Shown here one piece after another: positions 7,559 to 36,574 of a stretch of DNA of 64,000 bases. Position numbers and translations under genes: made by a program. The stretch lies in assembly GCF_050920415.1 (NCBI RefSeq), contig NZ_CP169309.1, one strand, 5' to 3'. The DNA is from Escherichia coli. GTDB lineage: Bacteria; Pseudomonadota; Gammaproteobacteria; Enterobacterales; Enterobacteriaceae. Position 1 is the stretch's first letter. Every line of letters starts with the position of its first letter. Under the pieces are notes generated by a model. That model did no database searches. It had not been told where the DNA came from and saw only the letters and a program-made list of their open reading frames with translations.

Positions 7559-7726
7559 ATTGTTCAAAAAACGAAAGAACGGAGGTACGTATGTACGCAC
7601 TGAAAAAGATTACGGTAACTGAAGATGGTCGTCAGTAGACTGGCCCCCTGAATCTCCAGACAACCAGTATCACTTAAATAAGTGATAGTCTTAATACTAG
7701 TTTTTAGACTAGTCATTGGAGAACAG

Positions 7727-8092
7727 ATGATTGATGTCTTAGGGCCGGAGAAACGCAGACGGCGTACCACACAGGAAAAGATCGCAATTGTTCAGCAGAG
7801 CTTTGAACCGGGGATGACGGTCTCCCTCGTTGCCCGGCAACATGGTGTAGCAGCCAGCCAGTTATTTCTCTGGCGTAAGCAATACCAGGAAGGAAGTCTT
7901 ACTGCTGTCGCCGCCGGAGAACAGGTTGTTCCTGCCTCTGAACTTGCTGCCGCCATGAAGCAGATTAAAGAACTCCAGCGCCTGCTCGGCAAGAAAACGA
8001 TGGAAAATGAACTCCTCAAAGAAGCCGTTGAATATGGACGGGCAAAAAAGTGGATAGCGCACGCGCCCTTATTGCCCGGGGATGGGGAGTAA
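7727..8092 (+). CDS. insC: IS2 transposase OrfA (InsC)
   Basis: Translation [41 protein letters not shown]... matches IS2 InsC. Confidence 0.9.
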
Positions 8093-8955
8093 GCTTAGTC
8101 AGCCGTTGTCTCCGGGTGTCGCGTGCGCAGTTGCACGTCATTCTCAGACGAACCGATGACTGGATGGATGGCCGCCGCAGTCGTCACACTGATGATACGG
8201 ATGTGCTTCTCCGTATACACCATGTTATCGGAGAGCTGCCCACGTATGGTTATCGTCGGGTATGGGCGCTGCTTCGCAGACAGGCAGAACTTGATGGTAT
8301 GCCTGCAATCAATGCCAAACGTGTTTACCGGATCATGCGCCAGAATGCGCTGTTGCTTGAGCGAAAACCTGCTGTACCGCCATCGAAACGGGCACATACA
8401 GGCAGAGTGGCCGTGAAAGAAAGCAATCAGCGATGGTGCTCTGACGGGTTCGAGTTCTGCTGTGATAACGGAGAGAGACTGCGTGTCACGTTCGCGCTGG
8501 ACTGCTGTGATCGTGAGGCACTGCACTGGGCGGTGACTACTGGCGGCTTCAACAGTGAAACAGTACAGGACGTCATGCTGGGAGCGGTGGAACGCCGCTT
8601 CGGCAACGATCTTCCGTCGTCTCCAGTGGAGTGGCTGACGGATAATGGTTCATGCTACCGGGCTAATGAAACACGCCAGTTCGCCCGGATGTTGGGACTT
8701 GAACCGAAGAACACGGCGGTGCGGAGTCCGGAGAGTAACGGAATAGCAGAGAGCTTCGTGAAAACGATAAAGCGTGACTACATCAGTATCATGCCCAAAC
8801 CAGACGGGTTAACGGCAGCAAAGAACCTTGCAGAGGCGTTCGAGCATTATAACGAATGGCATCCGCATAGTGCGCTGGGTTATCGCTCGCCACGGGAATA
8901 TCTGCGGCAGCGGGCTTGTAATGGGTTAAGTGATAACAGATGTCTGGAAATATAG
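8050..8955 (+). CDS. insD: IS2 transposase OrfB (InsD), DDE integrase-type
   Basis: 301-aa translation matches IS2 InsD; overlaps insC in the -1 frame as in IS2. Confidence 0.9.
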
Positions 8956-9236
8956 GGGCAAATCCAGTCAGGTTGAGGAAGTGCATGTCCTGGGGGGATA
9001 TGTATCGTATGGAGTTTTACCCGCGTAATACCCATCTGGCAGCAAAAATTGAGTATTGCCGGAACGGGAATATTTCATGTTTGCAGGTAGAGAAAACGGA
9101 TGAGGCTTATATCACTACGCTGAACGGCGATACGATGTCAGCGCCAATGATATAAGACAGTAATTCACCATTTGGATTGTCCGCTCCACCCAACATGTTG
9201 TTTCCTTAAGGTTCCTACACCACAAAGGGAACACTC

Positions 9237-11202
<1,966 letters not shown>

Positions 11203-12919: not shown

Positions 12920-13597
12920 TAGCGGGTTTTCGCTATTTACGAGTTTTTTTGAGGTGATGGTTGTTGTTTTATCGTTTGATATATCTACTTGATAAGTAAT
13001 AAGAAAGAAAAATAAACACAACAACCTGATGATCTTTCTTATACGAAAAAGCATGTAAAATCAGAGGGTTTTACAAAAAACGTGGTTGTTGTATTGCTTT
13101 TTTGCCGGTGGTTTATGGAGGGGCTGTGGCCTTTTTATTGAATAAAAGCGACATGGCCTCCTCCATCGGTATCTCAGTACAGGCATTTGATAAATGGGGT
13201 GTTCCTCCTGTTGAGCGCCGGGGGAGAGAGGTTTTCTATGACGTTAAAACTGTACTGGAGATAGATCGCGAGCGACGTCAACAAAACCAGAAATCTTCAG
13301 GTGGTGAAAATGATCTTGAGGAAAGGCTACTTCAGGCCAGGGTTAACCTGACGGAAGAACAGGCTATTGCTCAGCGGTTAAAAAACCAGGTTGCAGAGCA
13401 TAAGGTGATTGATACAGCTTTCTCTATTTTTGCCCTGTCCCGGTTATCCGGAGAACTGGCATCTGTTTTGGACAGTATTCCGCTTTCGATGCAAAGAAAA
13501 TTCCCTGAATTGACAGGCAGACAATTGGCTTATCTAAAAGAGCTGGTTGCGAAGGGGGCTAATAAATGCGTTGAGTCCGCTGAAAAAATGAAGGAAT

Positions 13598-17310
<3,713 letters not shown>

Positions 17311-17330
<20 letters not shown>

Positions 17331-18630
17331 TCTCCCGCATATTGCCAGCATGGCCTTTAATGAGCCGCTGATGCTTGAACCCGCCTATGCGCGGGTTTTC
17401 TTTTGTGCGCTAGCAGGCCAGCTTGGGATCAGCCGCCTGACAGATGCGGTGTCCGGTGACAGCCTGACTGCCCCGGAGACACCCGCGACGCTGGCGTTAT
17501 CTGGTGATGATGACGGACCACGACAGGCCCGCAGTTATCAGGTCATGAACGGCATCGCCGTGCTGCCGGTTTCCGGCACGCTGGTCAGCCGGACGCGGGC
17601 GCTGCAGCCGTATTCGGGGATGACCGGTTACAACGGCATTATCGCCCGTCTGCAACAGGCTGCCAGCGATCCGATGGTGGACGGCATTCTGCTCGATATG
17701 GACACGCCCGGCGGGATGGTGGCGGGGGCATTTGACTGCGCTGACATCATCGCCCGTGTGCGTGACATAAAACCGGTATGGGCGCTTGCCAACGACATGA
17801 ACTGCAGTGCAGGTCAGTTGCTTGCCAGTGCCGCTTCCCGGCGTCTGGTCACGCAGACCGCCCGGACAGGCTCCATCGGCGTCATGATGGCTCACAGCAA
17901 TTACGGTGCAGCGCTGGAGAAACAGGGCGTGGAAATCACGCTGATTTACAGCGGCAGCCATAAGGTGGATGGCAACCCCTACAGCCATCTTCCGGATGAC
18001 GTCCGGGAAACACTGCAGTCCCGGATGGATGCAACCCGCCAGATGTTTGCGCAGAAAGTGTCGGCATATACCGGCCTGTCCGTGCAGGCTGTGCTGGATA
18101 CCGAGGCTGCAGTGTACAGCGGTCAGGAGGCCATTGATGCCGGACTGGCTGATGAACTTGTTAACAGTACCGATGCGATCACCGTCATGCGTGATGCACT
18201 GGATACACGTAAATCCCGTCTCTCAGGAGGGCGAATGACCAAAGAGACTCAATCAACAACTGTTTCAGCCACTGCTTCGCAGGCTGACGTTACTGGCGTG
18301 GTGCAAGCGACGGAGGGCGAGAACGCCAGCGCTGCGCAGCCGGACGTGAACGCGCAGATCACCGCAGCGGTTGCGGCAGAAAACAGTCGCATTATGGGGA
18401 TCCTCAACTGTGAGGAGGCTCACGGACGCGAAGAACAGGCATGCGTGCTGGCCGAAACCCCCGGTATGACCGTGGAAACGGCCCGCCGTATTCTGGCCGC
18501 AGCACCACAGAGTGCACAGGCGCGCAGTGACACTGCGCTGGATCGTCTGATGCAGGGGGCACCGGCGCCGCTGGCTGCAGGTAACCCGGCATCTGATGCC
18601 GTTAACGATTTGCTGAACACACCAGTGTAA
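17311..18630 (+). CDS. C: Head maturation protease/scaffold C (GTG start with GGAGGAG RBS); Nu3 scaffold encoded in-frame in its 3' portion
   Basis: 439-aa translation from GTG 17311 (VTAELRNLPHIASMAFNEPLMLEP...) matches lambda gpC; the ORF-track start at 17176 lies within B. Confidence 0.9.
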
Positions 18631-18639
18631 GGGATGTTT

Positions 18640-18972
18640 ATGACGAGCAAAGAAACCTTTACCCATTACCAGCCGCTGGGCAACAGTGACCCGGCTCATA
18701 CCGCAACCGCGCCCGGCGTATTGAGTGCGAAAGCGCCTGCAATGACCCCGCTGATGCTGGACACCTCCACCCGTAAGCTGGTTGCGTGGGATGGCACCAC
18801 CGACGGTGCTGCCGTTGGCATTCTTGCAGTTGCTGCTGACCAGACCAGCACCACACTGACGTTCTACAAGTCCGGCACGTTCCGTTATGAGGATGTGCTC
18901 TGGCCGGAGGCTGCCAGCGACGAGACGAAAAAACGGACCGCGTTTGCCGGAACGGCAATCAGCATCGTTTAA
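18640..18972 (+). CDS. D: Head decoration protein D
   Basis: [12 protein letters not shown]... matches lambda gpD (110 aa). Confidence 0.9.
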
Positions 18973-18990
18973 CTTTACCCTTCATCACTA

Positions 18991-19027: not shown

Positions 19028-20053
19028 ATGTCGATGTACACAACCGCCCAACTGCTCGCGGCAAATGAGCAGAAATTTAAGTTTGATCCGCTGTTTCTGC
19101 GTCTCTTTTTCCGTGAGAGCTATCCCTTCACCACGGAGAAAGTCTATCTCTCACAAATTCCGGGACTGGTAAACATGGCGCTGTACGTTTCGCCGATTGT
19201 TTCCGGTGAGGTTATCCGTTCCCGTGGCGGCTCCACCTCTGAATTTACGCCGGGATATGTCAAGCCGAAGCATGAAGTGAATCCGCAGATGACCCTGCGT
19301 CGCCTGCCGGATGAAGATCCGCAGAATCTGGCGGACCCGGCTTACCGCCGCCGTCGCATCATCATGCAGAACATGCGTGACGAAGAGCTGGCCATTGCTC
19401 AGGTCGAAGAGATGCAGGCAGTTTCTGCCGTGCTTAAGGGCAAATACACCATGACCGGTGAAGCCTTCGATCCGGTTGAGGTGGATATGGGCCGCAGTGA
19501 GGAGAATAACATCACGCAGTCCGGCGGCACGGAGTGGAGCAAGCGTGACAAGTCCACGTATGACCCGACCGACGATATCGAAGCCTACGCGCTGAACGCC
19601 AGCGGCGTGGTGAATATCATCGTGTTTGACCCGAAAGGCTGGGCGCTGTTCCGTTCCTTCAAAGCCGTCAAGGAGAAGCTGGATACCCGTCGCGGCTCTC
19701 ATTCCGAGCTGGAGACAGCGGTGAAAGACCTGGGTAAAGCGGTGTCCTATAAGGGGATGTATGGCGATGTGGCCATCGTCGTGTATTCCGGACAGTACGT
19801 GGAAAACGGCGTCAAAAAGAACTTCCTGCCGGACAACACGATGGTGCTGGGGAACACTCAGGCACGCGGTCTGCGCACCTATGGCTGCATTCAGGATGCG
19901 GACGCACAGCGCGAAGGCATTAACGCCTCTGCCCGTTACCCGAAAAACTGGGTGACCACCGGCGATCCGGCGCGTGAGTTCACCATGATTCAGTCAGCAC
20001 CGCTGATGCTGCTGGCTGACCCTGATGAGTTCGTGTCCGTACAACTGGCGTAA
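19028..20053 (+). CDS. E: Major capsid protein E
   Basis: 341 aa from ATG 19028 (MSMYTTAQLLAANEQKFKFDPLFLRLFF...) matches lambda gpE. Confidence 0.95.
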   Translation: MSMYTTAQLLAANEQKFKFDPLFLRLFFRESYPFTTEKVYLSQIPGLVNMALYVSPIVSGEVIRSRGGSTSEFTPGYVKPKHEVNPQMTLRRLPDEDPQNLADPAYRRRRIIMQNMRDEELAIAQVEEMQAVSAVLKGKYTMTGEAFDPVEVDMGRSEENNITQSGGTEWSKRDKSTYDPTDDIEAYALNASGVVNIIVFDPKGWALFRSFKAVKEKLDTRRGSHSELETAVKDLGKAVSYKGMYGDVAIVVYSGQYVENGVKKNFLPDNTMVLGNTQARGLRTYGCIQDADAQREGINASARYPKNWVTTGDPAREFTMIQSAPLMLLADPDEFVSVQLA

Positions 20054-20094
20054 TCATGGCCCTTCGGGGCCATTGTTTCTCTGTGGAGGAGTCC

Positions 20095-20493
20095 ATGACG
20101 AAAGATGAACTGATTGCCCGTCTCCGCTCGCTGGGTGAACAACTGAACCGTGATGTCAGCCTGACGGGGACGAAAGAAGAACTGGCGCTCCGTGTGGCAG
20201 AGCTGGAAGAGGAGCTTGATGACACGGATGAAACTTCCGGTCAGGACACCCCTCTCAGCCGGGAAAATGTGCTGACCGGACATGAAAATGAGGTGGGATC
20301 AGCGCAGCCGGATACCGTGATTCTGGATACGTCTGAACTGGTCACGGTCGTGGCACTGGTGACGCTGCATACTGATGCACTTCACGCCACGCGGGATGAG
20401 GCTGTGGCATTTGTGCTGCCGGGAACGGCGTTCCGTGTCTCTGCCGGTGTGGCAGCTGAAATGACAGAGCGCGGCCTGGCCAGAATGCAATAA
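20095..20493 (+). CDS. FI: DNA packaging protein FI
   Basis: 132 aa from ATG 20095 (MTKDELIARLRSLGEQLNRDVSLTGTKEELA...) matches lambda FI. Confidence 0.9.
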   Translation: MTKDELIARLRSLGEQLNRDVSLTGTKEELALRVAELEEELDDTDETSGQDTPLSRENVLTGHENEVGSAQPDTVILDTSELVTVVALVTLHTDALHATRDEAVAFVLPGTAFRVSAGVAAEMTERGLARMQ

Positions 20494-20504
20494 CGGGAGG
20501 CGCT

Positions 20505-20879
20505 GTGGCTGATTTCGATAACCTGTTCGATGCTGCCATTGCCTGCGCCGATGAAACGATACGCGGGTACATGGGAACGTCAGCCACCATGACATCCGGT
20601 GAGCAGTCCGGTGCTGTGATACGTGGTGTTTTTGATGACCCTGAAAATATCAGCTATGCCGGACAGGGCGTGCGCGTTGAAGGCTCCAGCCCGTCCCTGT
20701 TTGTCCGGACTGATGATGTGCGGCAGCTGCGGCGCGGCGACACGCTGACCATCGGTGAGGAAAACTTCTGGATAGACCGGATTTCGCCGGATGATGGCGG
20801 AAGCTGTCATCTCTGGCTTGGGCGGGGCGTACCGCCTGCCGTTAACCGTCGCCGCTGGAAGGGGGATGTATGGCCATAA
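20505..20879 (+). CDS. FII: Head-tail connector protein FII
   Basis: Translation MADFDNLFDAAIA...DETIRGYMGTSAT matches lambda FII. Confidence 0.9.
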   Translation: MADFDNLFDAAIACADETIRGYMGTSATMTSGEQSGAVIRGVFDDPENISYAGQGVRVEGSSPSLFVRTDDVRQLRRGDTLTIGEENFWIDRISPDDGGSCHLWLGRGVPPAVNRRRWKGDVWP

Positions 20880-21448
20880 AAGGTCTTGAGCAGGCCGTTG
20901 AAAACCTCAGCCGTATCAGCAGAACGGCGGTGCCCGGTGCCGCCGCAATGGCCATTAACCGCGTTGCTTCATCCGCGATATCGCAGTCGGTGTCACAGGT
21001 TGCCCGTGAGACAAAGGTACGCCGGAAACTGGTAAAGGAAAGGGCCAGGCTGAAAAGGGCCACGGTCAAAAATCCGCAGGCCAGAATCAAGGTTAACCGG
21101 GGGGATTTGCCCGTAATCAGGCTGGGTAATGCGCGGGTTGTCCTTTCGCGCCGCAGGCGTCGTAAAAAGGGGCAGCGTTCAGCCCTGAAAGGTGGCGGCA
21201 GCGTGCTTGTGGTGGGTAACCGTCGTATTCCCGGCGCGTTTATTCAGCAACTGAAAAATGGCCGGTGGCATGTTATGCAGCGTGTGGCCGGGAAAAACCG
21301 TTACCCCATTGATGTGGTGAAAATCCCGATGGCGGTGCCGCTGACCACGGCGTTTAAACAAAATATTGAGCGGATACGGCGTGAACGTCTTCCGAAAGAG
21401 CTGGGCTATGCGCTGCAGCATCAACTGAGGATGGTAATAAAGCGATGA
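20870..21448 (+). CDS. Z: Tail completion protein Z
   Basis: 192 aa, matches lambda gpZ. Confidence 0.9.
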   Translation: MAIKGLEQAVENLSRISRTAVPGAAAMAINRVASSAISQSVSQVARETKVRRKLVKERARLKRATVKNPQARIKVNRGDLPVIRLGNARVVLSRRRRRKKGQRSALKGGGSVLVVGNRRIPGAFIQQLKNGRWHVMQRVAGKNRYPIDVVKIPMAVPLTTAFKQNIERIRRERLPKELGYALQHQLRMVIKR

Positions 21449-21840
21449 AACATACTGAACTCCGTGCAGCCGTACTGGATGCACTGGAGAAGCATGACAC
21501 CGGGGCGACGTTTTTTGATGGTCGCCCCGCTGTTTTTGATGAGGCGGATTTTCCGGCAGTTGCCGTTTATCTCACCGGCGCTGAATACACGGGCGAAGAG
21601 CTGGACAGCGATACCTGGCAGGCGGAGCTGCATATCGAAGTTTTCCTGCCTGCTCAGGTGCCGGATTCAGAGCTGGATTCGTGGATGGAGTCCCGGATTT
21701 ATCCGGTGATGAGCGATATCCCGGCACTGTCAGATTTGCTCACCAGTATGGTGGCCAGTGGCTATGACTACCGGCGCGACGATGATGCGGGCCTGTGGAG
21801 TTCTGCCGATCTGACTTATGTCATTACCTATGAAATGTGA
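21445..21840 (+). CDS. U: Tail terminator protein U
   Basis: 131 aa, matches lambda gpU. Confidence 0.9.
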
Positions 21841-21847
21841 GGACGAT

Positions 21848-22588
21848 ATGCCTGTACCAAATCCAGCAATACCGGTGAAAGGTGCCGGGACCACCCTGTG
21901 GGTTTATAACGGGAGCGGCGACCCTTATGCGAACCCGCTTTCAGACGTTGACTGGTCGCGTCTGGCTAAAGTTAAAGACCTGACGCCCGGCGAACTGACC
22001 GCTGAGTCCTATGACGACAGTTATCTCGATGATGAAGATGCGGACTGGACCGCGACCGGGCAGGGGCAGAAATCCGCCGGAGATACCAGCTTCACGCTGG
22101 CGTGGATGCCCGGAGAGCAGGGGCAGCAGGCGCTGCTGGCGTGGTTTAATGAAGGTGATACCCGTGCCTATAAAATCCGCTTCCCGAACGGCACGGTCGA
22201 TGTGTTCCGTGGCTGGGTCAGCAGTATCGGTAAGGCGGTGACGGCGAAGGAAGTGATCACCCGTACGGTGAAGGTCACCAATGTGGGCCGTCCGTCAATG
22301 GCAGAAGATCGCAGCACGGTAACAGCGGCAACCGGTATGACCGTGACGCCTGCCAGCTCCTCGGTGGTGAAAGGGCAGAGCACCACGCTGACCGTGGCAT
22401 TCCAGCCGGAGGGCGCAACTGACAAGAGCTTCCGTGCGGTGTCAGCGGATAAAACAAAAGCCACCGTGTCGGTCAGTGGTATGACCATCACCGTGAAAGG
22501 CGTTGCTGCAGGTAAGGTCAACATTCCGGTTTTATCCGGTAATGGTGAACTTGCTGCGGTTGCAGAAATCACTGTCACCGACAGTTAA
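21848..22588 (+). CDS. V: Major tail tube protein V (with C-terminal Ig-like domain)
   Basis: 246 aa from ATG 21848 ([20 protein letters not shown]...) matches lambda gpV. Confidence 0.95.
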
Positions 22589-22603: not shown

Positions 22604-23028
22604 ATGTTCCTGAAAACCGAATCATTTGAACATAACGGTGTGACCGTCACGCTTTCTGAACTGTCAGCCCTGCAGCGCATTGAGCATCTCGCCCTGATGA
22701 AACGGCAGGCAGAACAGGCGGAGTCAGACAGCAACCGGAAGTTTACTGTGGAAGACGCGCCATCAGAACCGGCGCGTTTCTGGTGGCGATGTCCCTGTGG
22801 CATAACCATCCGCAGAAGACAAAGCTGCCGTCCATGAATGAAGCCGTTAAACAGATTGAGCAGGAAGTGCTTACCACCTGGCCCACGGAGGCAATTTCTC
22901 ATGCTGAAAACGTGGTGTACCGGCTGTCTGGTATGTATGAGTTTGTGGTGAATAATGCCCCTGAACAGACAGAGGACGCCGGGCCCGCAGAGCCTGTTTC
23001 TGCGGGAAAGTGTTCGACGGTGAGCTGA
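22604..23028 (+). pseudogene. G: Tail assembly chaperone G, disrupted by a 2-nt insertion near 22757-22760
   Basis: Two overlapping ORFs (22604..22837 and 22783..23028) each carry part of the lambda G sequence; reading switches frame at GAAGACGCGCCATC. Confidence 0.75.
23004..23010 (+). other. Programmed -1 ribosomal frameshift slippery heptamer GGGAAAG (G to G-T fusion)
   Basis: GGGAAAG at the 3' end of G with the T reading frame opening at this point, as in lambda. Confidence 0.8.
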
Positions 23029-23444: not shown

Positions 23445-25998
23445 ACCGGTAGGCGATCTGGTCGTTGATTTAAGTCTGGATGCGGCCAGATTTGACGAGC
23501 AGATGGCCAGAGTCAGGCGTCATTTTTCCGGTACGGAAAGTGATGCGAAAAAAACAGCGGCAGTCGTTGAACAGTCGCTGAGCCGACAGGCGCTGGCTGC
23601 ACAGAAAGCGGGGATTTCCGTCGGGCAGTATAAAGCCGCCATGCGTATGCTGCCTGCACAGTTCACCGACGTGGCCACGCAGCTTGCAGGCGGGCAAAGT
23701 CCGTGGCTGATCCTGCTGCAACAGGGGGGGCAGGTGAAGGACTCCTTCGGCGGGATGATCCCCATGTTCAGGGGGCTTGCCGGTGCGATCACCCTGCCGA
23801 TGGTGGGGGCCACCTCGCTGGCGGTGGCGACCGGTGCGCTGGCGTATGCCTGGTATCAGGGCAACTCAACCCTGTCCGATTTCAACAAAACGCTGGTCCT
23901 TTCCGGCAATCAGTCGGGTCTGACGGCAGATCGCATGCTGGTCCTGTCCAGAGCCGGGCAGGCGGCAGGGCTGACGTTTAACCAGACCAGCGAGTCACTC
24001 AGCGCACTGGTTAAGGCGGGGGTAAGCGGTGAGGCTCAGATTGCGTCCATCAGCCAGAGTGTGGCGCGTTTCTCCTCTGCATCCGGCGTGGAGGTGGACA
24101 AGGTCGCTGAAGCCTTCGGGAAGCTGACCACAGACCCGACGTCGGGGCTGACGGCGATGGCACGCCAGTTCCATAACGTGACGGCGGAGCAGATTGCGTA
24201 TGTTGCTCAGTTGCAGCGTTCCGGCGATGAAGCCGGGGCATTGCAGGCGGCGAACGAGGCCGCAACGAAAGGGTTTGATGACCAGACCCGCCGCCTGAAA
24301 GAGAACATGGGCACGCTGGAGACCTGGGCAGACAGGACTGCGCGGGCCTTCAAATCCATGTGGGATGCGGTGCTGGATATTGGTCGTCCTGATACCGCGC
24401 AGGAGATGCTGATTAAGGCAGAGGCTGCGTTTAAGAAAGCAGACGACATCTGGAATCTGCGCAAGGATGATTATTTTGTTAACGATGAAGCGCGGGCGCG
24501 TTACTGGGATGATCGTGAAAAGGCCCGTCTTGCGCTTGAAGCCGCCCGAAAGAAGGCTGAGCAGCAGACTCAACAGGACAAAAATGCGCAGCAGCAGAGC
24601 GATACCGAAGCGTCACGGCTGAAATATACCGAAGAGGCGCAGAAGGCTTACGAACGGCTGCAGACGCCGCTGGAGAAATATACCGCCCGTCAGGAAGAAC
24701 TGAACAAGGCACTGAAAGACGGGAAAATCCTGCAGGCGGATTACAACACGCTGATGGCGGCGGCGAAAAAGGATTATGAAGCGACGCTGAAAAAGCCGAA
24801 ACAGTCCGGCGTGAAGGTGTCTGCGGGCGATCGTCAGGAAGACAGTGCTCATGCTGCCCTGCTGACGCTTCAGGCAGAACTCCGGACGCTGGAGAAGCAT
24901 GCCGGAGCGAATGAGAAAATCAGCCAGCAGCGCCGGGATTTGTGGAAGGCAGAAAGTCAGTTCGCGGTACTGGAGGAGGCGGCACAACGTCGCCAGCTGT
25001 CCGCACAGGAGAAATCCCTGCTGGCGCATAAAGATGAGACGCTGGAGTACAAACGCCAGCTGGCTGCACTTGGCGACAAGGTTACGTATCAGGAGCGCCT
25101 GAACGCGCTGGCGCAGCAGGCGGATAAATTCGCACAGCAGCAACGGGCAAAACGGGCCGCCATTGATGCGAAAAGCCGGGGGCTGACTGACCGGCAGGCA
25201 GAACGGGAAGCCACGGAACAGCGCCTGAAGGAACAGTATGGCGATAATCCGCTGGCGCTGAATAACGTCATGTCAGAGCAGAAAAAGACCTGGGCGGCTG
25301 AAGACCAGCTTCGCGGGAGCTGGATGGCAGGCCTGAAGTCCGGCTGGAGTGAGTGGGAAGAGAGCGCCATGGACAGTATGTCGCAGGTAAAAAGTGCAGC
25401 CACGCAGACCTTTGATGGTATTGCACAGAATATGGCGGCGATGCTGACCGGCAGTGAGCAGAACTGGCGCAGCTTCACCCGTTCCGTGCTGTCCATGATG
25501 ACAGAAATTCTGCTTAAGCAGGCAATGGTGGGGATTGTCGGGAGTATCGGCAGCGCCATTGGCGGGGCTGTTGGTGGCGGCGCATCCGCGTCAGGCGGTA
25601 CAGCCATTCAGGCCGCTGCGGCGAAATTCCATTTTGCAACCGGAGGATTTACGGGAACCGGCGGCAAATATGAGCCAGCGGGGATTGTTCACCGTGGTGA
25701 GTTTGTCTTCACGAAGGAGGCAACCAGCCGGATTGGCGTGGGGAATCTCTACCGGCTGATGCGCGGCTATGCCACCGGTGGTTATGTCGGTACACCGGGC
25801 AGTCTGGCTGACAGCCGGTCGCAGGCGTCCGGGACGTTTGAGCAGAATAACCATGTGGTGATTAACAACGAAGGCACGAACGGGCAGATAGGGCCACAGG
25901 CGCTGAAGGCGGTTTATGACGTAGCCCGTAAGGCGGCAATGGATGTTGTGACCGGGCAGATGCGCGATGGTGGTCTGTTCTCCGGAGGTGGACGATGA
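23437..25998 (+). CDS. H: Tail tape measure protein H
   Basis: 853 aa, same length as lambda gpH, coiled-coil-rich translation. Confidence 0.95.
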   Translation: MAEPVGDLVVDLSLDAARFDEQMARVRRHFSGTESDAKKTAAVVEQSLSRQALAAQKAGISVGQYKAAMRMLPAQFTDVATQLAGGQSPWLILLQQGGQVKDSFGGMIPMFRGLAGAITLPMVGATSLAVATGALAYAWYQGNSTLSDFNKTLVLSGNQSGLTADRMLVLSRAGQAAGLTFNQTSESLSALVKAGVSGEAQIASISQSVARFSSASGVEVDKVAEAFGKLTTDPTSGLTAMARQFHNVTAEQIAYVAQLQRSGDEAGALQAANEAATKGFDDQTRRLKENMGTLETWADRTARAFKSMWDAVLDIGRPDTAQEMLIKAEAAFKKADDIWNLRKDDYFVNDEARARYWDDREKARLALEAARKKAEQQTQQDKNAQQQSDTEASRLKYTEEAQKAYERLQTPLEKYTARQEELNKALKDGKILQADYNTLMAAAKKDYEATLKKPKQSGVKVSAGDRQEDSAHAALLTLQAELRTLEKHAGANEKISQQRRDLWKAESQFAVLEEAAQRRQLSAQEKSLLAHKDETLEYKRQLAALGDKVTYQERLNALAQQADKFAQQQRAKRAAIDAKSRGLTDRQAEREATEQRLKEQYGDNPLALNNVMSEQKKTWAAEDQLRGSWMAGLKSGWSEWEESAMDSMSQVKSAATQTFDGIAQNMAAMLTGSEQNWRSFTRSVLSMMTEILLKQAMVGIVGSIGSAIGGAVGGGASASGGTAIQAAAAKFHFATGGFTGTGGKYEPAGIVHRGEFVFTKEATSRIGVGNLYRLMRGYATGGYVGTPGSLADSRSQASGTFEQNNHVVINNEGTNGQIGPQALKAVYDVARKAAMDVVTGQMRDGGLFSGGGR

Positions 25999-26324
25999 AA
26001 ACCTTCCGCTGGAAAGTGAAACCCGGTATGGATGTGGCTTCGGCCCCTTCCGTCAGGAAGGTGCGCTTTGGTGATGGCTATTCCCAGCGTGCGCCTGCCG
26101 GGCTGAATGCCGACCTGAAAACGTACAGTGTGACGCTTTCCGTGACCCGGGAGGAGGCCCGGCATCTGGAGTCGTTTCTGGCAGAGCACGGGGGCTGGAA
26201 GGCCTTTCTGTGGACGCCGCCTTATGGTTACAGGCAGATAAAGGTGACCTGCGCAAAATGGTCGTCGCAGGTCAGTATGTTGCGTGTTGAGTTCAGCGCA
26301 GAGTTTAAACAGGTGGTGAACTGA
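25995..26324 (+). CDS. M: Tail tip protein M
   Basis: 109 aa, matches lambda gpM. Confidence 0.9.
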   Translation: MKTFRWKVKPGMDVASAPSVRKVRFGDGYSQRAPAGLNADLKTYSVTLSVTREEARHLESFLAEHGGWKAFLWTPPYGYRQIKVTCAKWSSQVSMLRVEFSAEFKQVVN

Positions 26325-27022
26325 TGCAGGATATCCGGCAGGAAACACTGAATGAATGCACCCGTGCGGAGCAGTCGGCCAGCGTGGTGCTCTGGGAAAT
26401 CGATCTGACAGAGGTCGGTGGAGAACGTTATTTTTTCTGTAATGAGCAGAACGAAAAAGGTGAGCCGGTCACCTGGCAGGGGCGACAGTATCAGCCGTAT
26501 CCCATTCAGGGGACGGGATTTGAACTGAACGGCAAGGGCAGTGCTGCCCGTCCGACACTGACGGTCTCTAACCTGTACGGCATGGTCACCGGGATGGCGG
26601 AAGATCTGCAGAGTCTGGTTGGCGGAACGGTGGTCCGGCGTAAGGTTTACGCCCGTTTTCTGGATGCGGTGAACTTCGTCAACGGAAACAGAGACGCCGA
26701 TCCGGAGCAGGAGGTGATCAGCCGCTGGCGCATCGAGCAGTGCAGCGAACTGAGCGCGGTGAGTGCCTCCTTTGTACTGTCCACGCCGACGGAAACGGAT
26801 GGCGCTGTTTTTCCGGGACGTATCATGCTGGCCAACACCTGCACCTGGACCTATCGCGGTGACGAGTGCGGTTATAGCGGTCCGGCTGTCGCGGATGAAT
26901 ATGACCAGCCAACGTCCGATATCACGAAGGATAAATGCAGCAAATGCCTGAGCGGTTGTAAGTTCCGCAATAACGTCGGCAACTTTGGCGGCTTCCTTTC
27001 CATTAACAAACTTTCGCAGTAA
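26324..27022 (+). CDS. L: Tail tip protein L
   Basis: 232 aa, matches lambda gpL including the C-terminal Cys cluster. Confidence 0.9.
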   Translation: MQDIRQETLNECTRAEQSASVVLWEIDLTEVGGERYFFCNEQNEKGEPVTWQGRQYQPYPIQGTGFELNGKGSAARPTLTVSNLYGMVTGMAEDLQSLVGGTVVRRKVYARFLDAVNFVNGNRDADPEQEVISRWRIEQCSELSAVSASFVLSTPTETDGAVFPGRIMLANTCTWTYRGDECGYSGPAVADEYDQPTSDITKDKCSKCLSGCKFRNNVGNFGGFLSINKLSQ

Positions 27023-27027
27023 ATCCC

Positions 27028-27771
27028 ATGACACAGACAGAATCAGCGATTCTGGCGCACGCCCGGCGATGTGCGCCAGCGGAGTCGTGCGGCTTCGTGG
27101 TAAGCACGCCGGAGGGGGAAAGATATTTCCCCTGCGTGAATATCTCCGGTGAGCCGGAGGCGTATTTCCGGATGTCGCCGGAAGACTGGCTGCAGGCAGA
27201 AATGCAGGGTGAGATTGTGGCGCTGGTCCACAGCCACCCCGGTGGTCTGCCCTGGCTGAGTGAGGCCGACCGGCGGCTGCAGGTGCAGAGTGATTTGCCG
27301 TGGTGGCTGGTCTGCCTGGGCGTGATTCACAAGTTCCGCTGTGTGCCGTATCTCACCGGGCGGCGCTTTGAGCACGGAGTGACGGACTGTTACACGCTGT
27401 TCCGGGACGCTTACCATCTGGCGGGAATTGAGATGCCGGATTTTCACCGCGAGGATGACTGGTGGCGTCACGGTCAGAATCTCTATCTTGACAATATGGA
27501 GGCAACGGGTTTTTACCGTGTCGCACTGACAGAGGCGCAGCCGGGCGATGTGCTGCTGTGCAGCTTTGGTTCATCGGTGCCGAATCATGCTGCCATTTAC
27601 TGCGGCGACGGCGAGCTGCTGCACCATATTCCTGAACAACTGAGCAAACGAGAGAGGTATACCGACAAATGGCAGCGACGCACACACTCCCTCTGGCGTC
27701 ACCGGGCATGGCACGCATCTGCCTTTACGGGGATTTGCAACGATTTGGCCGCCGCATCGACCTTCGTGTGA
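27028..27771 (+). CDS. K: Tail tip assembly protein K (MPN/NlpC-P60 type)
   Basis: Translation MTQTESAILAHARRCAPAESCGFVVS... matches lambda gpK; overlaps I by about 100 nt as in lambda. Confidence 0.9.
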   Translation: MTQTESAILAHARRCAPAESCGFVVSTPEGERYFPCVNISGEPEAYFRMSPEDWLQAEMQGEIVALVHSHPGGLPWLSEADRRLQVQSDLPWWLVCLGVIHKFRCVPYLTGRRFEHGVTDCYTLFRDAYHLAGIEMPDFHREDDWWRHGQNLYLDNMEATGFYRVALTEAQPGDVLLCSFGSSVPNHAAIYCGDGELLHHIPEQLSKRERYTDKWQRRTHSLWRHRAWHASAFTGICNDLAAASTFV

Positions 27772-28310
27772 AAACGGGGGCTGAAGCCATCCGGGCGCTG
27801 GCCACACAGCTCCCGGCGTTTCGTCAGAAACTGAATGAGGGCTGGTATCAGATACGGATTGCCGGGCGTGATGCAGGTGAAACCGAATTATCAGCCCGTC
27901 TGAATGAGCCGCTGGAAAATGGTGCCGTGATCCACATCGTGCCGCGTCTGGCGGGTGCTAAAAGTGGCGGTATTTTTCAGGCAGTGCTGGGGGCGGCTGT
28001 TATGGCAGTTGCTATATGGATGCCAGGAGTAGGAATTATGGCGAGTAATCTGCTGTTTTCTCTCGGTGCCAGTATGACGCTTGGCGGTGTTGCACAGATG
28101 CTGGCCCCTAAACCCAAAACCCCCCGCACACAGACAACGGATAACGGCAAACAGAACACCTATTTTTCTTCACTGGATAACATGGTTGCCCAGGGCAATG
28201 TCCTGCCCGTTCTGTACGGTGAAATGCGTGTGGGGTCGCGCGTGGTTTCTCAGGAGATCAGCACGGCAGACGAAGGGGACGGTGGTCAGGTTGTGGTGAT
28301 TGGTCGCTGA
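27669..28310 (+). CDS. I: Tail tip assembly protein I
   Basis: Translation matches lambda gpI; 60-bp gap to J as in lambda. Confidence 0.9.
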   Translation: MAATHTLPLASPGMARICLYGDLQRFGRRIDLRVKTGAEAIRALATQLPAFRQKLNEGWYQIRIAGRDAGETELSARLNEPLENGAVIHIVPRLAGAKSGGIFQAVLGAAVMAVAIWMPGVGIMASNLLFSLGASMTLGGVAQMLAPKPKTPRTQTTDNGKQNTYFSSLDNMVAQGNVLPVLYGEMRVGSRVVSQEISTADEGDGGQVVVIGR

Positions 28311-28370
28311 TGCAAAATGTTTTATGTGAAACCGCCTGCGGGCGGTTTTATCGTTTATGGAGCGTGAGGA

Positions 28371-31300
28371 ATGGGTAAAGGCAGCAGTAAGGGGCATACC
28401 CCGCGCGAAGCGAAGGACAACCTGAAGTCCACGCAGCTGCTGAGTGTGATCGATGCCATCAGCGAAGGGCCGGTTGAAGGTCCGGTGGATGGATTAAAAA
28501 GCGTGCTGCTGAACAGTACACCTGTGCTGGACAGTGAGGGGAATACCAATATCTCCGGCGTCACGGTGGTGTTCCGGCCGGTGAGCAGGAGCAGACACCG
28601 CCGGAGGGGTTTGAATCCTCCGGCTCCGAGACGGTGCTGGGTACGGAAGTGAAATACGACACGCCGATCACCCGCACCATTACGTCTGCAAACATCGACC
28701 GTCTGCGCTTTACCTTCGGTGTACAGGCACTGGTGGAAACCACCTCAAAGGGTGACAGGAATCCGTCGGAAGTCCGCCTGCTGGTTCAGATACAACGTAA
28801 CGGTGGCTGGGTGACGGAAAAGGACATCACCATTAAGGGTAAAACCACTTCACAGTATCTGGCCTCGGTGGTGGTGGATAACCTGCCGCCGCGCCCGTTC
28901 AGTATCCGGATGCGCAGGATGACGCCGGACAGCACCACAGACCAGCTGCAGAACAAAACGCTCTGGTCGTCATACACTGAAATCATCGATGTGAAACAGT
29001 GCTACCCGAACACGGCACTGGTTGGCGTACAGGTGGACTCGGAACAGTTCGGCAGTCAGCAGGTGAGCCGTAATTATCATCTGCGCGGGCGCATTCTGCA
29101 GGTGCCGTCGAACTATAACCCGCAGACGCGGCAATACAGCGGTATCTGGGACGGAACGTTTAAACCGGCATACAGCAACAACATGGCCTGGTGTCTGTGG
29201 GATATGCTGACCCATCCGCGCTACGGCATGGGGAAACGTCTTGGTGCGGCGGATGTGGATAAATGGGCGCTGTATGTCATCGGCCAGTACTGCGACCAGT
29301 CAGTGCCGGACGGCTTTGGTGGCACGGAGCCGCGCATCACCTGTAATGCGTACCTGACCACACAGCGCAAGGCGTGGGATGTGCTCAGTGATTTCTGCTC
29401 GGCGATGCGCTGTATGCCGGTATGGAACGGGCAGACGCTGACGTTCGTGCAGGACCGACCGTCGGATAAGGTGTGGACCTATAACCGCAGTAATGTGGTG
29501 ATGCCGGATGATGGCGCGCCGTTCCGCTACAGCTTCAGCGCCCTGAAGGACCGCCATAATGCCGTTGAGGTGAACTGGATTGACCCGGACAACGGCTGGG
29601 AGACGGCGACAGAGCTTGTTGAAGATACGCAGGCCATTGCCCGTTACGGTCGTAATGTCACGAAGATGGATGCCTTTGGCTGTACCAGCCGGGGGCAGGC
29701 ACACCGCGCCGGGCTGTGGCTGATTAAAACGGAACTGCTGGAGACGCAGACCGTGGATTTCAGCGTGGGTGCTGAAGGGCTTCGCCATGTACCGGGCGAT
29801 GTCATTGAAATCTGCGATGATGACTATGCCGGTATCAGCACCGGTGGTCGCGTGCTGGCGGTGAACAGCCAGACCCGGACGCTGACGCTCGACCGTGAAA
29901 TCACGCTGCCATCCTCCGGTACCACGCTGATAAGCCTGGTTGACGGAAGTGGCAATCCGGTCAGCGTGGAGGTTCAGTCCGTCACCGACGGCGTGAAGGT
30001 AAAAGTGAGCCGTGTTCCTGACGGTGTTGCTGAATACAGCGTATGGGGGCTGAAGCTGCCGACGCTGCGCCAGCGACTGTTCCGCTGCGTGAGTATCCGT
30101 GAGAACGACGACGGCACGTATGCCATCACCGCCGTGCAGCATGTGCCGGAAAAAGAGGCCATCGTGGATAACGGGGCGCACTTTGACGGCGAACAGAGTG
30201 GCACGGTGAATGGTGTCACGCCGCCAGCGGTGCAGCACCTGACCGCAGAAGTCACTGCAGACAGCGGGGAATATCAGGTGCTGGCGCGCTGGGACACGCC
30301 GAAGGTGGTGAAGGGCGTGAGCTTCCTGCTTCGCCTGACCGTGGCAGCGGATGACGGCAGTGAGCGGCTGGTCAGCACGGCCCGGACGACGGAAACAACA
30401 TACCGCTTCAGGCAGCTGGCGCTGGGGCGGTACACGCTGACAGTCCGGGCGGTAAATGCGTGGGGGCAGCAGGGCGATCCGGCATCGGTATCGTTCCGGA
30501 TTGCCGCACCGGCAGCGCCGTCGCGGATTGAGCTGACGCCGGGCTATTTTCAGATAACCGCCACGCCGCATCTTGCGGTTTATGACCCGACGGTACAGTT
30601 TGAGTTCTGGTTCTCGGAAAAGCGGATTACCGATATCAGGCAGGTTGAAACCACAGCCCGCTATCTTGGTACGGCGCTGTACTGGATAGCCGCCAGTATC
30701 AATATCAAACCGGGCCATGATTATTACTTTTATATCCGCAGTGTGAACACCGTTGGCAAATCGGCATTCGTGGAGGCTGTTGGTCAGCCGAGTGATGATG
30801 CTTCCGGCTATCTGGATTTTTTCAAAGGAGTGATAGGGAAAACACACCTGGCTCAGGAGCTGTGGACGCAGATTGATAACGGTCAGCTTGCGCCTGACCT
30901 GGCTGAAATCAGGACGTCCATTACGGATGTCAGCAATGAAATCACACAGACCGTCAATAAGAAACTGGAAGACCAGAGTGCAGCGATCCAGCAGATACAG
31001 AAGGTTCAGGTTGATACAAATAATAACCTGAACAGCATGTGGGCTGTGAAGCTGCAGCAGATGCAGGACGGACGCCTTTATATCGCGGGTATCGGTGCCG
31101 GTATTGAGAACACCCCTGACGGCATGCAGAGTCAGGTGCTGCTGGCGGCGGACAGGATTGCGATGGTTAATCCTGCGAATGGCAACACAAAACCGATGTT
31201 TGTTGGTCAGGGCGATCAGATATTCATGAACGACGTGTTCCTGAAGCGCCTGACGGCCCCCACCATTACCAGCGGCGGCAATCCCCCGGCCTTTTCCCTG

Positions 31301-31849
31301 ACACCAGACGGAAAGCTGACCGCTAAAAATGCGGATATCAGTGGCAGTGTGAATGCGAACGCCGGGACGCTCAATAATGTCACGATTAATGAGAACTGTC
31401 AGATTCTGGGGAAACTGTCAGCTAATCAGATTGAAGGCGATATTGTTAAAACGGTGGGTAAGGCTTTCCCCCGTGACTCCCGGGCACCGGAGCGGTGGCC
31501 GTCAGGGACCATTACCGTCAGGGTTTATGACGATCAGCCTTTTGACCGGCAAATTGTCATTCCGGCGGTGGCATTCAGCGGTGCCAGACATGAGAGAGAG
31601 CATAATGACATTTATTCATCATGCCGTCTGATAGTGCGGAAAAACGGTGCTGAAATTTATAACCGTACCGCGCTGGATAATACGCTGATTTATACCGGTG
31701 TGATTGATATGCCAGCGGGTCGCGGTCACATGACGCTGGAGTTTTCGGTATCAGCGTGGCTGGTGAATGACTGGTATCCCACGGCAAGCATCAGCGATTT
31801 GCTGGTTGTGGTGATGAAGAAATCCACAGCCGGTATCAGTATCAGCTGA
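28371..31849 (+). pseudogene. J: Central tail fibre / host-specificity protein J, disrupted by a 1-nt frameshift near 28578; C-terminal receptor-binding region appears divergent from lambda J
   Basis: N-terminal 93-aa ORF (28371..28652) matches the J N-terminus; the rest (28634..31849) continues in another frame. Confidence 0.8.
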
Positions 31850-31907
31850 ATGTTCAGAAACCAGACCGGGTGCCAGAAATGGCACCTTTTTTATTTGTGG
31901 AACGAAT

Positions 31908-34492
31908 ATGGCAGTAAAGATTTCAGGCGTGCTGAAAGACGGTGCAGGTAAACCGGTACAGAACTGCACCATTCAGCTGAAAGCAAAACGTAACAGTACC
32001 ACGGTGGTGGTGAACACGGTGGCCTCAGAAAATCCGGATGAAGCCGGGCGTTACAGTATGGACGTTGAGTACGGCCAGTACGGTGTCATCCTGCTGGTTG
32101 AAGGTTTTCCGCCGTCACATGCCGGCACCATCACCGTGTATGAAGATTCTGAGCCGGGGACGCTGAATGATTTTCTCGGTGCCATGACGGAGGATGATGC
32201 CCGTCCGGAGGCACTGCGCCGTTTTGAACTGATGGTGGAAGAGGTGGCGCGTAACGCGTCCGCAGTGGCACAGAACACGGCAGCCGCGAAAAAATCCGCC
32301 GGCGATGCCGGAACATCTGCCCGTGAGGCGGCAACCCATGCGACTGATGCTGCAGGCTCAGCACGCGCCGCCAGCACGTCCGCCGGACAGGCTGCGACGT
32401 CAGCACAGGAAGCATCTTCCGGCGCAGAAACAGCCTCAGCAAAGGCCGCTGAGGCATCAAAAAGTGCTGCCGCTGCAGAGTCCTCAAAAAGCGCGGCGGC
32501 CACCAGTGCCGGTGCCGCGAAAACGTCAGAAACGAATGCGGCAGCGTCACAACAATCAGCCGCCACGTCTGCATCCACCGCGACCACGAAAGCGTCAGAA
32601 GCTGCCACGTCAGCCAGGGATGCGGCGGCCTCAAAAGAGGCGGCAAAATCATCAGAAACGAGCGCAGCCTCGAGCGCCGGTAGTGCAGCTTCCTCGGCAA
32701 CGGCGGCAGGAAATTCCGCGAAGGCGGCAAAGACGTCTGAGACGACGCCAGGTCTTCTGAAACGGCAGCGGAACAGAGTGCCTCCGCAGCAGCAGGCTCA
32801 GAAACTGCCGCTGCATCATCGTCCCGTGAGGCGTCAGTTAAAGCGGAGGAGGCATCAGCCAGTGCCACCGCCGCCGGAAAATCGGCAGAAAGTGCCGCAT
32901 CGTCCGCTTCAGCAGCCACAACGAAGGCTGGCGAAGCCACTGAACAGGCCACTGCAGCAGTGAGGTCTGCTTCCGCTGCGAGGACATCCGAGACGAACGC
33001 GAAAGCGTCGGAAACCCGTGCAGAATCTTCAGAAACGGCTGCCGTATCGTCCGCCAGTTCGGCGGCGTCATCAGCATCATCGGCGTCAGCTTCAAAAGAT
33101 GAGGCGGCAAGGCTGGCGTCAGAGGCGCAGGGCAGTGCCACGACGGCATCCGCGAAGGCGACAGAGGCAGCTGGCAGTGCGACAGCGGCAGCACAGAGCA
33201 AAAGCACGGCAGAATCCGCGGCAACGCGCGCCGAGACTGCGGCAAAACGGGCGGAGGATATTGCGTCTGCCGTGGCGCTTGAGGATGCGAGCACGACGAA
33301 AAAGGGGATAGTCCAGCTCAGCAGTGCAACCAACAGCACTTCCGAGTCACTGGCGGCAACACCAAAGGCCGTAAAAGCCGCCTGTGAGAATGCTGAGAAA
33401 CGACTGCAGAAAGATAAGAACGGTGCGGATGTCCCCGACAAAGACACCTTTACGAAAAATATTGGTGCCTGCCGTGCCTTCGGTGGGGCCGTAAGCACAA
33501 CGACAGGAGACTGGACGACCGCACAGTTTATCGGGTGGCTGGATTCTCAGGGCGCATTTAACCACCCATACTGGATGTGCAAGGGCTCCTGGTCTTACGG
33601 TAATAATAAAATCATCACGGATACGGGCTGCGGAAATATTCATCTCGCCGGCGCTGTCATTGAGGTGATGGGGATAAAGTCAGCGATGACGATCCGCATA
33701 ACCACACCGACAACATCCAGCGGAAGTGGAACGGCGAATGCGCAGTTTACCTATATTAATCATGGTGATGGTTATTCCCCTGGCTGGCGTCGTGACTACA
33801 ACACGAAAAACAAGCCACCGGCCTTTGCGCTGGGAAAAACCGGGGAAACGCTCGCCGATACAGATGCCGTCGCCTGGAACCTGGACAGTGGCGCTTATTG
33901 TGCACAGGATGGTGGCGCATCATCCTTAATTCTTCATTTTAATACAGGGGAAGGCAGCTGCCCCGCGGTCCAGTTTCGGGTGAATTACCGGAATGGCGGG
34001 ATATTTTACCGCTCCGCCCGTGATGGCTATGGCTTTGAGGCGGACTGGGAGCGTCTGTTCACGACAACGGGCGGGACCCTGGAAGGTGCTGTGGGTATCG
34101 GTGCACAGAATACGCTGGGCGGCCATTCACTTGCGCTGGGGAGGGGCGACACAGGCCTGAAACAAAACGGCGACGGTAATCTTGATGTTTACGCCGGTAA
34201 CGCACGTGTAATGCGCTTTACAAACGGCAGCATTCAGGTCAGTAAAGGGCTGAATGTGTCCGGGCGCGTTAATCCTTCCGATTACAGTAATTTTGATATC
34301 CGCTATGTCAGGGATATCCGGCTGGGTACGCGTGTTGTTCAGGGCATGCAAAAAGGCGTGACGTATGAGAAATCCGGCCATGTCATTACGGGGCTTTGTC
34401 TTGTCGGGGATGCTGATGGCGATAACTCAGCGGTTTACCGGCCGGTGCAAAAATACATAAACGGCACATGGTTTAACGTATCGCAGGTATAA
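31908..34492 (+). pseudogene. stf: Side tail fibre protein Stf, disrupted by a 1-nt frameshift near 32747 within the Ala/Ser/Thr-rich repeat region
   Basis: N-terminus MAVKISGVLKDGAGKPVQNCTIQLKA... and the conserved GIVQLSSATNSTSESLAATPKAVKAA motif lie in different frames; genuine repeat sequence continues in the other frame across 32741. Confidence 0.75.
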
Positions 34493-34495
34493 GTA

Positions 34496-35026
34496 ATGCA
34501 GCACTTAAAAAATATTACAGCAGGTAATCCCAAAACCGTTGCTCAGTATCAACTGACAAAAAATTTTGATGTTATCTGGTTGTTTTCAGAGGACGGAAGA
34601 AACTGGTATGAAGAAGTGAGTAACTTTCAGAAAGACACAATAAAGATGGCTTACGATGAAAACAATATTATCGTTGCCATCACCCGGGATGCCTCAACGC
34701 TTAATCCGGCGGGATTAAGTGTTGTTGAGGTGGCAGATATAACGGCGAACCGCCGTGCAGACGATTCGGGGCAGTGGATGTATCTGGACGGTCAGGTGAG
34801 GAAACGCGAGTATTCGTCAGAGGAAGTCAACAGACAGACAGAGCAACGCAAGGCCACGCTGCTCAGTGAAGCAGATACCATCATCCGGCTTCTGGAGCGG
34901 TCGGTAAGGCTGAGTATGGCCACGGAAGAAGAGCGAACCCGGCTGTCGGCCTGGGAGCGTTACAGCGTCCTGCTCAGCCGGGTGGATTCAGCGAACCCGG
35001 AATGGCCACAAAAGCCAGAGCAGTAA
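34496..35026 (+). CDS. tfa: Tail fibre assembly protein Tfa
   Basis: 176-aa ORF immediately downstream of stf; sequence typical of lambdoid Tfa. Confidence 0.8.
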
Positions 35027-35290
35027 ATACCGGAGAAGAGGATTTTACGTTAATCAGTAATTACAGGCAGAGATGATAAAAGCCGCGGAACATTGTATGC
35101 AGGAATGTGCTGCGGCATACCGGATAACTGCGTATGTTGTGGAGTTTTATTTGGGGCATATATGGGACAGAAACAGGCCTCAGATAGGCAGTGATATTGA
35201 GATCAGGATATTTTTGAAAAGATGCAACCATTTGAAAAAACATAGAAAACCCCAAGAAAACCACAGGATGAAAAAAAACACCTATGAATC

Positions 35291-36574
35291 ATGGATTTCC
35301 AGTTATATTCGCTCGGCGCAGCGTTAGTGTTTCATGAAATATTTTTTCCTGAATCATCAACGGCAATGGCGTTAATTCTGGCAATGGGAACCTACGGTGC
35401 AGGTTATGTGGCGCGTATTGTCGGAGCATTTATTTTCGGCAAAATGGGCGACAGAATCGGGCGTAAAAAAGTGCTCTTTATTACCATCACTATGATGGGG
35501 ATCTGTACCACCTTAATTGGTGTGCTGCCGACCTATGCACAAATTGGTGTGTTTGCGCCAATTTTGCTGGTGACGCTGCGTATTATTCAGGGGCTGGGGG
35601 CAGGCGCGGAAATTTCCGGTGCCGGTACGATGCTGGCGGAATATGCGCCAAAAGGTAAGCGCGGAATTATCTCCTCATTTGTTGCTATGGGGACTAACTG
35701 CGGAACCTTGAGCGCAACGGCAATCTGGGCCTTTATGTTCTTCATTCTCAGTAAAGAGGAACTGTTGGCGTGGGGATGGCGTATACCGTTCCTGGCGAGC
35801 GTTGTCGTGATGGTCTTTGCTATCTGGTTGCGTATGAATCTGAAAGAAAGCCCGGTCTTTGAGAAGGTTAACGACAGCAACCAACCGACAGCAAAACCTG
35901 CACCTGCTGGTAGCATGTTCCAGAGCAAATCCTTCTGGCTGGCAACAGGGCTGCGTTTTGGTCAGGCTGGTAACTCAGGTTTAATTCAGACTTTCCTTGC
36001 AGGCTATTTAGTGCAGACGTTATTGTTTAACAAAGCAATTCCAACAGATGCATTGATGATCAGTTCGATTCTCGGCTTTATGACCATTCCGTTCCTTGGT
36101 TGGTTATCCGATAAAATTGGTCGCCGGATCCCGTATATTATTATGAATACCTCTGCGATTGTGCTGGCGTGGCCAATGCTTTCTATCATCGTAGATAAAA
36201 GCTATGCCCCGAGCACCATTATGGTTGCACTGATTGTGATTCATAACTGTGCGGTGCTGGGATTATTTGCTCTGGAAAACATTACCATGGCAGAAATGTT
36301 CGGCTGTAAAAATCGCTTTACCCGGATGGCCATTTCTAAAGAAATTGGTGGTCTTATCGCTTCCGGTTTTGGTCCTATCCTGGCGGGTATTTTCTGCACC
36401 ATGACGGAATCCTGGTATCCGATCGCCATTATGATCATGGCATATTCAGTGATTGGTTTAATCTCTGCGCTGAAAATGCCAGAAGTGAAAGACCGTGATT
36501 TAAGTGCACTGGAAGATGCCGCGGAAGATCAACCGCGTGTTGTAACAGCTGCGCAACCTTCAAGAAGTCTGTAA
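35291..36574 (+). pseudogene. ydfJ: MFS transporter YdfJ, 5'-truncated by the prophage insertion (prophage right junction about 35285-35290)
   Basis: 427-aa ORF lacking the first TM region of the family; in-frame stop immediately upstream of the ATG; same arrangement as Qin-interrupted ydfJ in K-12. Confidence 0.8.

Follow-up and report, generated by a model that had tools for sequence, protein, structure and literature searches.

The closest described counterparts of the locus analysed here are the side tail fibre (Stf) of Ur-lambda, the interrupted stf gene of lambda PaPa, and the Mu fibre proteins S/S' with U/U' (PDB 8JU3 and 5YVQ). Ur-lambda Stf, an intact protein of 774 residues, has been mapped into a collar (residues 1-91), a linker (92-101), a proximal coiled coil (102-393) and a hinge (394-422); the collar, to which PDB entries 9E7M and 9MGH belong, clamps the place where gpV meets gpM (PMC12617516). 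In lambda PaPa (J02459), the gene is divided into orf-401 (19650-20855) and orf-314 (21029-21973), and alignment of this record with KT232076, a lambda record carrying an intact 774-aa stf, places the lesion at one C lost from a CCCC run at stf nucleotides 1181-1184, in codon 395 (lambda coordinate about 20832). Among 21 low-adsorption isolates of lambda, 15 carried an stf frameshift (PMC2762979).

Having placed the PaPa lesion, we turn to a 64,000-nucleotide stretch of Escherichia coli DNA (contig NZ_CP169309.1; hereafter the window) in which a side-tail-fibre gene at 31908-34492 likewise appears in two pieces; features lie on the plus strand unless stated. The 5' fragment is a 351-aa ORF (31908-32963) that follows native codons 1-279 as far as 32744 and then runs through 72 out-of-frame codons to a TGA. 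The 3' part lies in the -1 frame, which is open from 32741 to 34492 and holds native codons 281-861, so that the two frames overlap over 32741-32963; within it, a 510-aa ORF begins with the GTG at 32960 and ends at 34492. Inspection of amino-acid composition locates the switch sharply. In the first frame, the combined Ala, Ser and Thr fraction falls from 0.72 at residues 117-279 to 0.04 past codon 279, the last 72 codons being 71% R, K, P, Q or H, while in the -1 frame the same fraction is 0.12, with stop codons, before 32741 and 0.68 from that position on. A TGA at 32738-32740 in the -1 frame confines the change of frame to 32741-32746. The earlier note on this DNA had proposed that stf is frameshifted inside an Ala/Ser/Thr tract and that one nucleotide would have to be restored near 32741-32750, and both points are borne out.

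The identity of the missing base follows from alignment with the closest complete genome, E. coli MFDS1022581 (NZ_CP169399.1), where an uninterrupted 861-aa ORF occupies this position. Where that genome reads GAGACGAACGCC, the window has GAGACG-ACGCC, with the gap at 32744/32745; the window sequence across the site is GAGACGACGCC, in which the one A that is left occupies 32745. In codons, GAG ACG AAC GCC of the intact gene becomes GAG ACG ACG CC, which corresponds to the loss of one A from the AAC codon of Asn280 (stf nucleotide 838, codon 280; 32744-32746 in the window). With one A inserted at 32745, the gene agrees exactly, in DNA and in protein, with the intact 861-aa version of MFDS1022581. 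The range given earlier was thus right, but the base had been placed after ACGACG, and the gap belongs 2 nt further left. A CCAGG sequence, the Dcm motif, begins 3 nt downstream of the deletion. On sequence evidence, both ORFs belong to a single side-tail-fibre gene of the stf type, 861 codons long and split by one missing A.

The assignment to the Stf family rests on the N-terminal part of the protein and on the neighbouring genes. The full PF08400 (phage_tail_N) profile aligns to residues 1-134 (E 7.5e-73), and a match to 9e7m_Ta, the collar chain of Ur-lambda Stf, covers residues 1-94 (E 6e-51). The order of the late operon, with J ending at 31849, stf at 31908-34492 and an intact tfa at 34496-35026, agrees with this assignment; the 176-aa tfa product, a tail fibre assembly chaperone, matches PF02413 (Caudo_TAP, E 1.9e-29) and is labelled 'tail fiber assembly protein' in relatives, while NCBIfam returned no match for either Stf or Tfa. 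The identification as stf made from the letters alone therefore stands. Between J and stf, a spacer of 58 nt contains a strong hairpin at 31868-31887 (GGGTGCC-AGAAAT-GGCACCT, then TTTTTT) that is terminator-like by match to the consensus only. On the minus strand, a 455-aa ORF (32131-33498) lies opposite the rod; it is not a gene but a by-product of GCN-rich rod codons, and has a lambda equivalent in 'orf206b' (J02459 20147-20767).

The comparison with Ur-lambda stf that had been suggested as a check was run, and it divides the protein in two. Residues 1-488 of the intact protein are 63% identical to residues 1-484 of Ur-lambda Stf, including an SETNARSSE motif at residues 277-285 that holds Asn280 and is the same in both, and no significant alignment was obtained past residue ~500. 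The Ala/Ser/Thr-rich rod (32256-33271, residues ~117-455; A+S+T fraction 0.68-0.72) is homologous to the Ur-lambda proximal coiled coil, residues 102-393, and the lesion falls on the Ur-lambda map in the middle of this proximal rod. A Phage_fiber_2 motif (PF03406, E 2.5e-18) at 33290-33412, starting GIVQLSSATNSTSE, marks the junction of rod and distal part; it is found in the 510-aa ORF together with a weak gp37_C match. Beyond it, a distal domain with a predicted receptor-binding role (33389-34105) resembles residues 178-418 of the Mu S/S' chimera 8ju3: residues 495-733 align closely with that chain, with whole-chain E values of 4e-133 and 9.5e-135 and a best stretch of 382.9 bits. The tip (34181-34483), comprising the last ~100 residues, aligns with the Mu S C-terminus (5YVQ, residues 396-502). 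The protein encoded by the restored frame is accordingly, as judged by homology, a lambda-type N-terminal half (collar, rod and Phage_fiber_2 junction) joined to a Mu S'/S-like tip. The absence of a lambda-type tip, together with the Mu-like distal part, indicates a mosaic member of the Stf family rather than an orthologue of lambda stf, and lambda itself was set aside as the identity of the gene on the same ground.

To see how the two alleles are distributed, it is useful to consider the intact form first. Full-length matches were found in 32 of 5,426 complete E. coli genomes, 31 of them spanning 2,586 nt and one 2,565 nt, and none has the deletion. At least eight independent assemblies (L001 and L007-L013 in our numbering of loci) match the window at all 2,585 nt, the one gap being the sole difference, and all encode the intact 861 aa. 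The deletion allele, by contrast, occurred in 0 of the 5,426 genomes (60-mer across the site, match of at least 99%) and had no exact 40-mer match in genome_contigs, viral_contigs or metagenome_contigs, while the intact 41-mer is present in viral_contigs; look-ups of the exact 351-aa stf fragment, and of a 93-aa fragment of J described below, came back empty.

Annotation of the family is a poor guide to its state. RefSeq (PGAP) tags intact 861-aa copies with a continuous ORF as pseudogenes, 'incomplete; missing C-terminus' (L001 6001-7563 and L002 3001-4563), likely because the Mu-like distal half is unlike the reference protein. In GCA_000194575.2 (L017), a 385-aa gene is called on the minus strand opposite the rod (L017 11660-12817); this call and a 406-aa fragment had suggested a second stf lesion or an IS insertion, a candidate that we rejected because the L017 ORF is an intact, misannotated 861 aa. 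With intact genes labelled as pseudogenes and antisense genes called across them, pseudogene counts for the stf family are unreliable in both directions. As a separate observation, isolate UR21/11-869 (L002; NZ_OU342919.1, 1-2942) has the same stf-tfa pair after an N-terminally truncated J, upstream of which lie genes labelled 'enterotoxin A family protein' and 'enterotoxin'; the locus lies beside uspF/ompN, not in ydfJ.

In the window, stf stands directly after J, in the right-end portion of a lambdoid prophage inserted in ydfJ, which is also the site of the K-12 Qin prophage. The 3' part of ydfJ, which encodes an MHS-family MFS transporter, occupies 35291-36574, and the gene lacks its N-terminus because the prophage integrated into it; the right prophage/chromosome junction lies within 35027-35290. 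Comparing the window with MFDS1022581 base by base gave 10 gap columns. Each falls within 10.0-32.7 kb, in IS DNA or the late region of the prophage; the ~28 kb of chromosomal sequence at 35-64 kb is free of gaps, and so are the first 7.6 kb. Two other tail genes are affected. In gpJ (28371-31849), GGG has become GG at 28575, which breaks the 1,159-aa tail-tip protein at codon 69, leaving a 1,071-aa ORF and a fragment of 93 aa; this allele is absent from L017-L020 and was seen in 0 of 5,426 complete E. coli genomes. In gpG (22604-23028), a CG duplication at 22756-22757 frameshifts the tail assembly chaperone upstream of its G/GT slippery site, leaving fragments that match Phage_TAC_2 positions 1-52 and 61-125, and this allele, too, occurred in 0 of 5,426 complete genomes.

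Mobile elements account for further damage. An IS21-family element (istA/istB, about 9237-11202) is common to the window and MFDS1022581, as is a frameshifted gene after the endolysin. In comparison with MFDS1022581 only, the istA of the window carries a -1 change with an adjacent substitution at 10257 (GGATC to GATT), which destroys a GATC and shortens istA to 348 aa. MFDS1022581 has private indels of its own, annotated 'frameshifted', in the portal gene and in the IS21 element, where its frameshifts differ from that of the window. Just after the endolysin, at 7636-8966, the window contains a 1,331-bp IS3-family insertion (an HTH_Tnp_1 ORF and an rve ORF), presumably IS2 by its length and proteins, with a 5-bp target duplication; its junction was not found in any complete E. 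coli genome. Because an insertion of this size with a target duplication cannot be a base-calling error, it is certainly a real private event. Substitutions relative to MFDS1022581 are clustered, ~105 of them at 13301-18976 (terminase-portal-protease) and 23 at 25698-26192 (H/M boundary), and resemble tracts that were exchanged by recombination with other lambdoid prophages; the H/M boundary also holds two indels that compensate each other, at 26159/26164.

Two main readings of the stf deletion compete. We favour, at a probability of roughly 0.58, the reading that the missing A is a consensus error of sequencing or assembly in a multi-copy prophage region, in which case the true gene in the organism would probably be intact and no biological event would have occurred. 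The difference is a single base, it is private to the window sequence, and it belongs to a pattern made of indels only. Over 10.57 kb (25750-36322), two draft assemblies, GCA_015518365.1 (L019) and GCA_045005245.1 (L020), show 0 substitutions relative to the window and depart from it only at the 1-nt deletions of J (28575) and stf (32744). Spontaneous mutation in E. coli produces indels and substitutions at about 1:10; under this assumed ratio, the probability that both of two differences are indels is about 0.008. Outside the recombination tracts, the window and MFDS1022581 differ by 7 indel events against ~5 isolated substitutions, for which P is about 3e-5 under the same assumption. An stf deletion that is private, in a prophage with other private indels and without accompanying substitutions, is better explained by an assembly error.

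The genomic setting is of the kind in which such errors would be expected to persist. The indels that separate the window from MFDS1022581 all lie in multi-copy DNA, and the stf rod region itself occurs at two places in MFDS1022581. Illumina drafts fragment here, their contigs beginning inside H, M-L or J or being only 0.6-1.5 kb long; the window, which runs unbroken through IS2- and IS21-type elements and the tail genes, therefore appears to come from a long-read-based assembly. The Polypolish preprint (10.1101/2021.10.14.464465) and Wick et al. (2019; PMC6591954) describe residual long-read errors as mostly changes of homopolymer length or errors at Dcm sites, and errors in repeats as outlasting short-read polishing. 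The window resembles this picture in that its single-base length changes lie in short runs, one beside CCAGG and one at a GATC, and in that its indels are private to one assembly and confined to multi-copy prophage or IS DNA without substitutions. It departs from it in that the run at the stf site is just 2 nt long. On the present window sequence, one of four lesion sites (stf) is close to a Dam or Dcm motif (P about 0.2); including the ancestral GATC of the istA lesion raises this to two of four (P about 0.025), an enrichment that is suggestive, but not decisive, as a nanopore signature. The remark in the earlier note that the tract is error-prone through repetition survives in part: the rod is present twice in the closest genome, but at the DNA level there is no repeat, with neither a tandem repeat nor a homopolymer of at least 5 nt at the site. 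DNA-level repeat instability was set aside for the same reason, the rod 'repeat' being one of amino-acid composition only.

Some features speak against a consensus error. The deleted base belongs to an AA dinucleotide and not to a long homopolymer, the CG duplication in gpG looks more like genuine slippage than like a typical consensus error, and a prophage that was already damaged in the common ancestor of the window and MFDS1022581 makes real decay plausible. The main alternative, which we put at somewhat below even odds, is accordingly that the deletion is a real and very recent loss-of-function mutation in an already decaying prophage. It would then join the damage shared with the closest relative (the IS21-type element and the frameshifted gene after the endolysin), the private 1,331-bp insertion, and the splitting of gpG by the CG duplication and of gpJ at codon 69, and it would agree with the ease with which stf frameshifts arise in lambda, as in the low-adsorption isolates and in PaPa. 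This explanation must nonetheless account for two frameshifting deletions and 0 substitutions in 10.6 kb relative to L019 and L020, and for 7 indels against ~5 substitutions relative to MFDS1022581, which is far from the expected ~1:10. The gpG, gpJ and stf lesions occur in no other genome (0 of 5,426), and the stf lesion in none of the contig collections scanned; nor is there an evident selective reason to strike three tail genes once the lysis region had been disrupted. For these reasons, the description of the lesion as an 'independent inactivation' goes too far: it presumes a biological deletion that is unproven, and the private, indel-only pattern fits an assembly error better. A stronger version, in which the gpG, gpJ and stf frameshifts are all real and arose in quick succession without substitutions, would call for selection for a tail-less prophage or for an indel-specific mutational process, and might leave the collar-plus-half-rod fragment with a function of its own; we regard it as very improbable.

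Least credible of all, to the point of being nearly negligible, is a functional split in which a programmed -1 ribosomal frameshift, transcriptional slippage or a phase-variable site yields a short collar-only protein alongside the full fibre: the downstream part does lie in the -1 frame with the frames overlapping, and a programmed -1 frameshift, at G/GT, is used in another part of lambdoid tail operons, but the overlap contains no X XXY YYZ slippery heptamer, there is no homopolymer of at least 5 nt within 250 nt, no simple-sequence or tandem repeat is present (TRF at a minimum score of 30 found none in 31900-34500), the out-of-frame tail is junk in composition, and all relatives have one continuous ORF, with the two-frame arrangement in no other sequence. 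A programmed frameshift was rejected on the heptamer and on the relatives, and a phase-variable contingency locus because the site offers only an AA dinucleotide and the deletion allele was seen nowhere else searched.

What the deletion would mean for the fibre, should it be real, can be read from the domain map. The 351-aa product would consist of the collar, 145 rod residues and 72 junk residues, and it could still attach to the tail at the boundary of gpV and gpM. Missing from it would be the Tfa-dependent C-terminus, the receptor-binding region and the distal rod, and side fibres would be lost with them; the 3' part should not be made, as the GTG at 32960 is the only -1-frame start codon before 33110 and is preceded by no Shine-Dalgarno-like sequence. 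With gpG and gpJ frameshifted as well, no functional, infectious tails would be expected, and stf would be one of several pseudogenes in the prophage.

The deletion carries little biological weight on either account, as it belongs to an ordinary and well-known class. If real, it adds to the frameshifted tail-fibre pseudogenes of defective prophages, a kind of lesion familiar since lambda PaPa and readily obtained in the laboratory. Should it be an artefact, as we favour, it is a reminder that long-read assemblies retain indel errors in multi-copy prophage genes.

Set beside the known systems, the gene of the window shares with Ur-lambda Stf the collar, flexible linker, proximal coiled coil and Phage_fiber_2 junction, as well as a position downstream of J with tfa next. 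It differs at the tip, which is gp37-like, His-rich and OmpC-binding in Ur-lambda and Mu S'/S-like here; the window also has no lom gene between J and stf, and its prophage sits in ydfJ rather than at attB-lambda. With Mu, the likeness is to the distal half of S/S' and to the Tfa/U-type chaperone gene that follows, whereas the N-terminal attachment part in the window is lambda-type, and there is neither an invertible G-segment-like cassette nor an invertase, only about 260 nt separating tfa from ydfJ. The lambda PaPa gene is homologous to that of the window (88% nucleotide identity across the initial 898 nt), shares with it the SETNARSSE motif that holds Asn280, and is likewise divided into two ORFs by a 1-nt deletion. 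As the earlier note stated, the two lesions are at different positions and give fragments of different size: PaPa lost a C from CCCC at the post-rod hinge, in codon 395, leaving 401 and 314 aa, whereas the window lacks an A from AA in mid-rod, in codon 280, leaving 351 and 510 aa. The PaPa lesion is experimentally established, while that of the window is putative and accompanied by other frameshifts; were it real, the expected outcome would be the one known from PaPa, a particle with no side fibres (PMC12617516).
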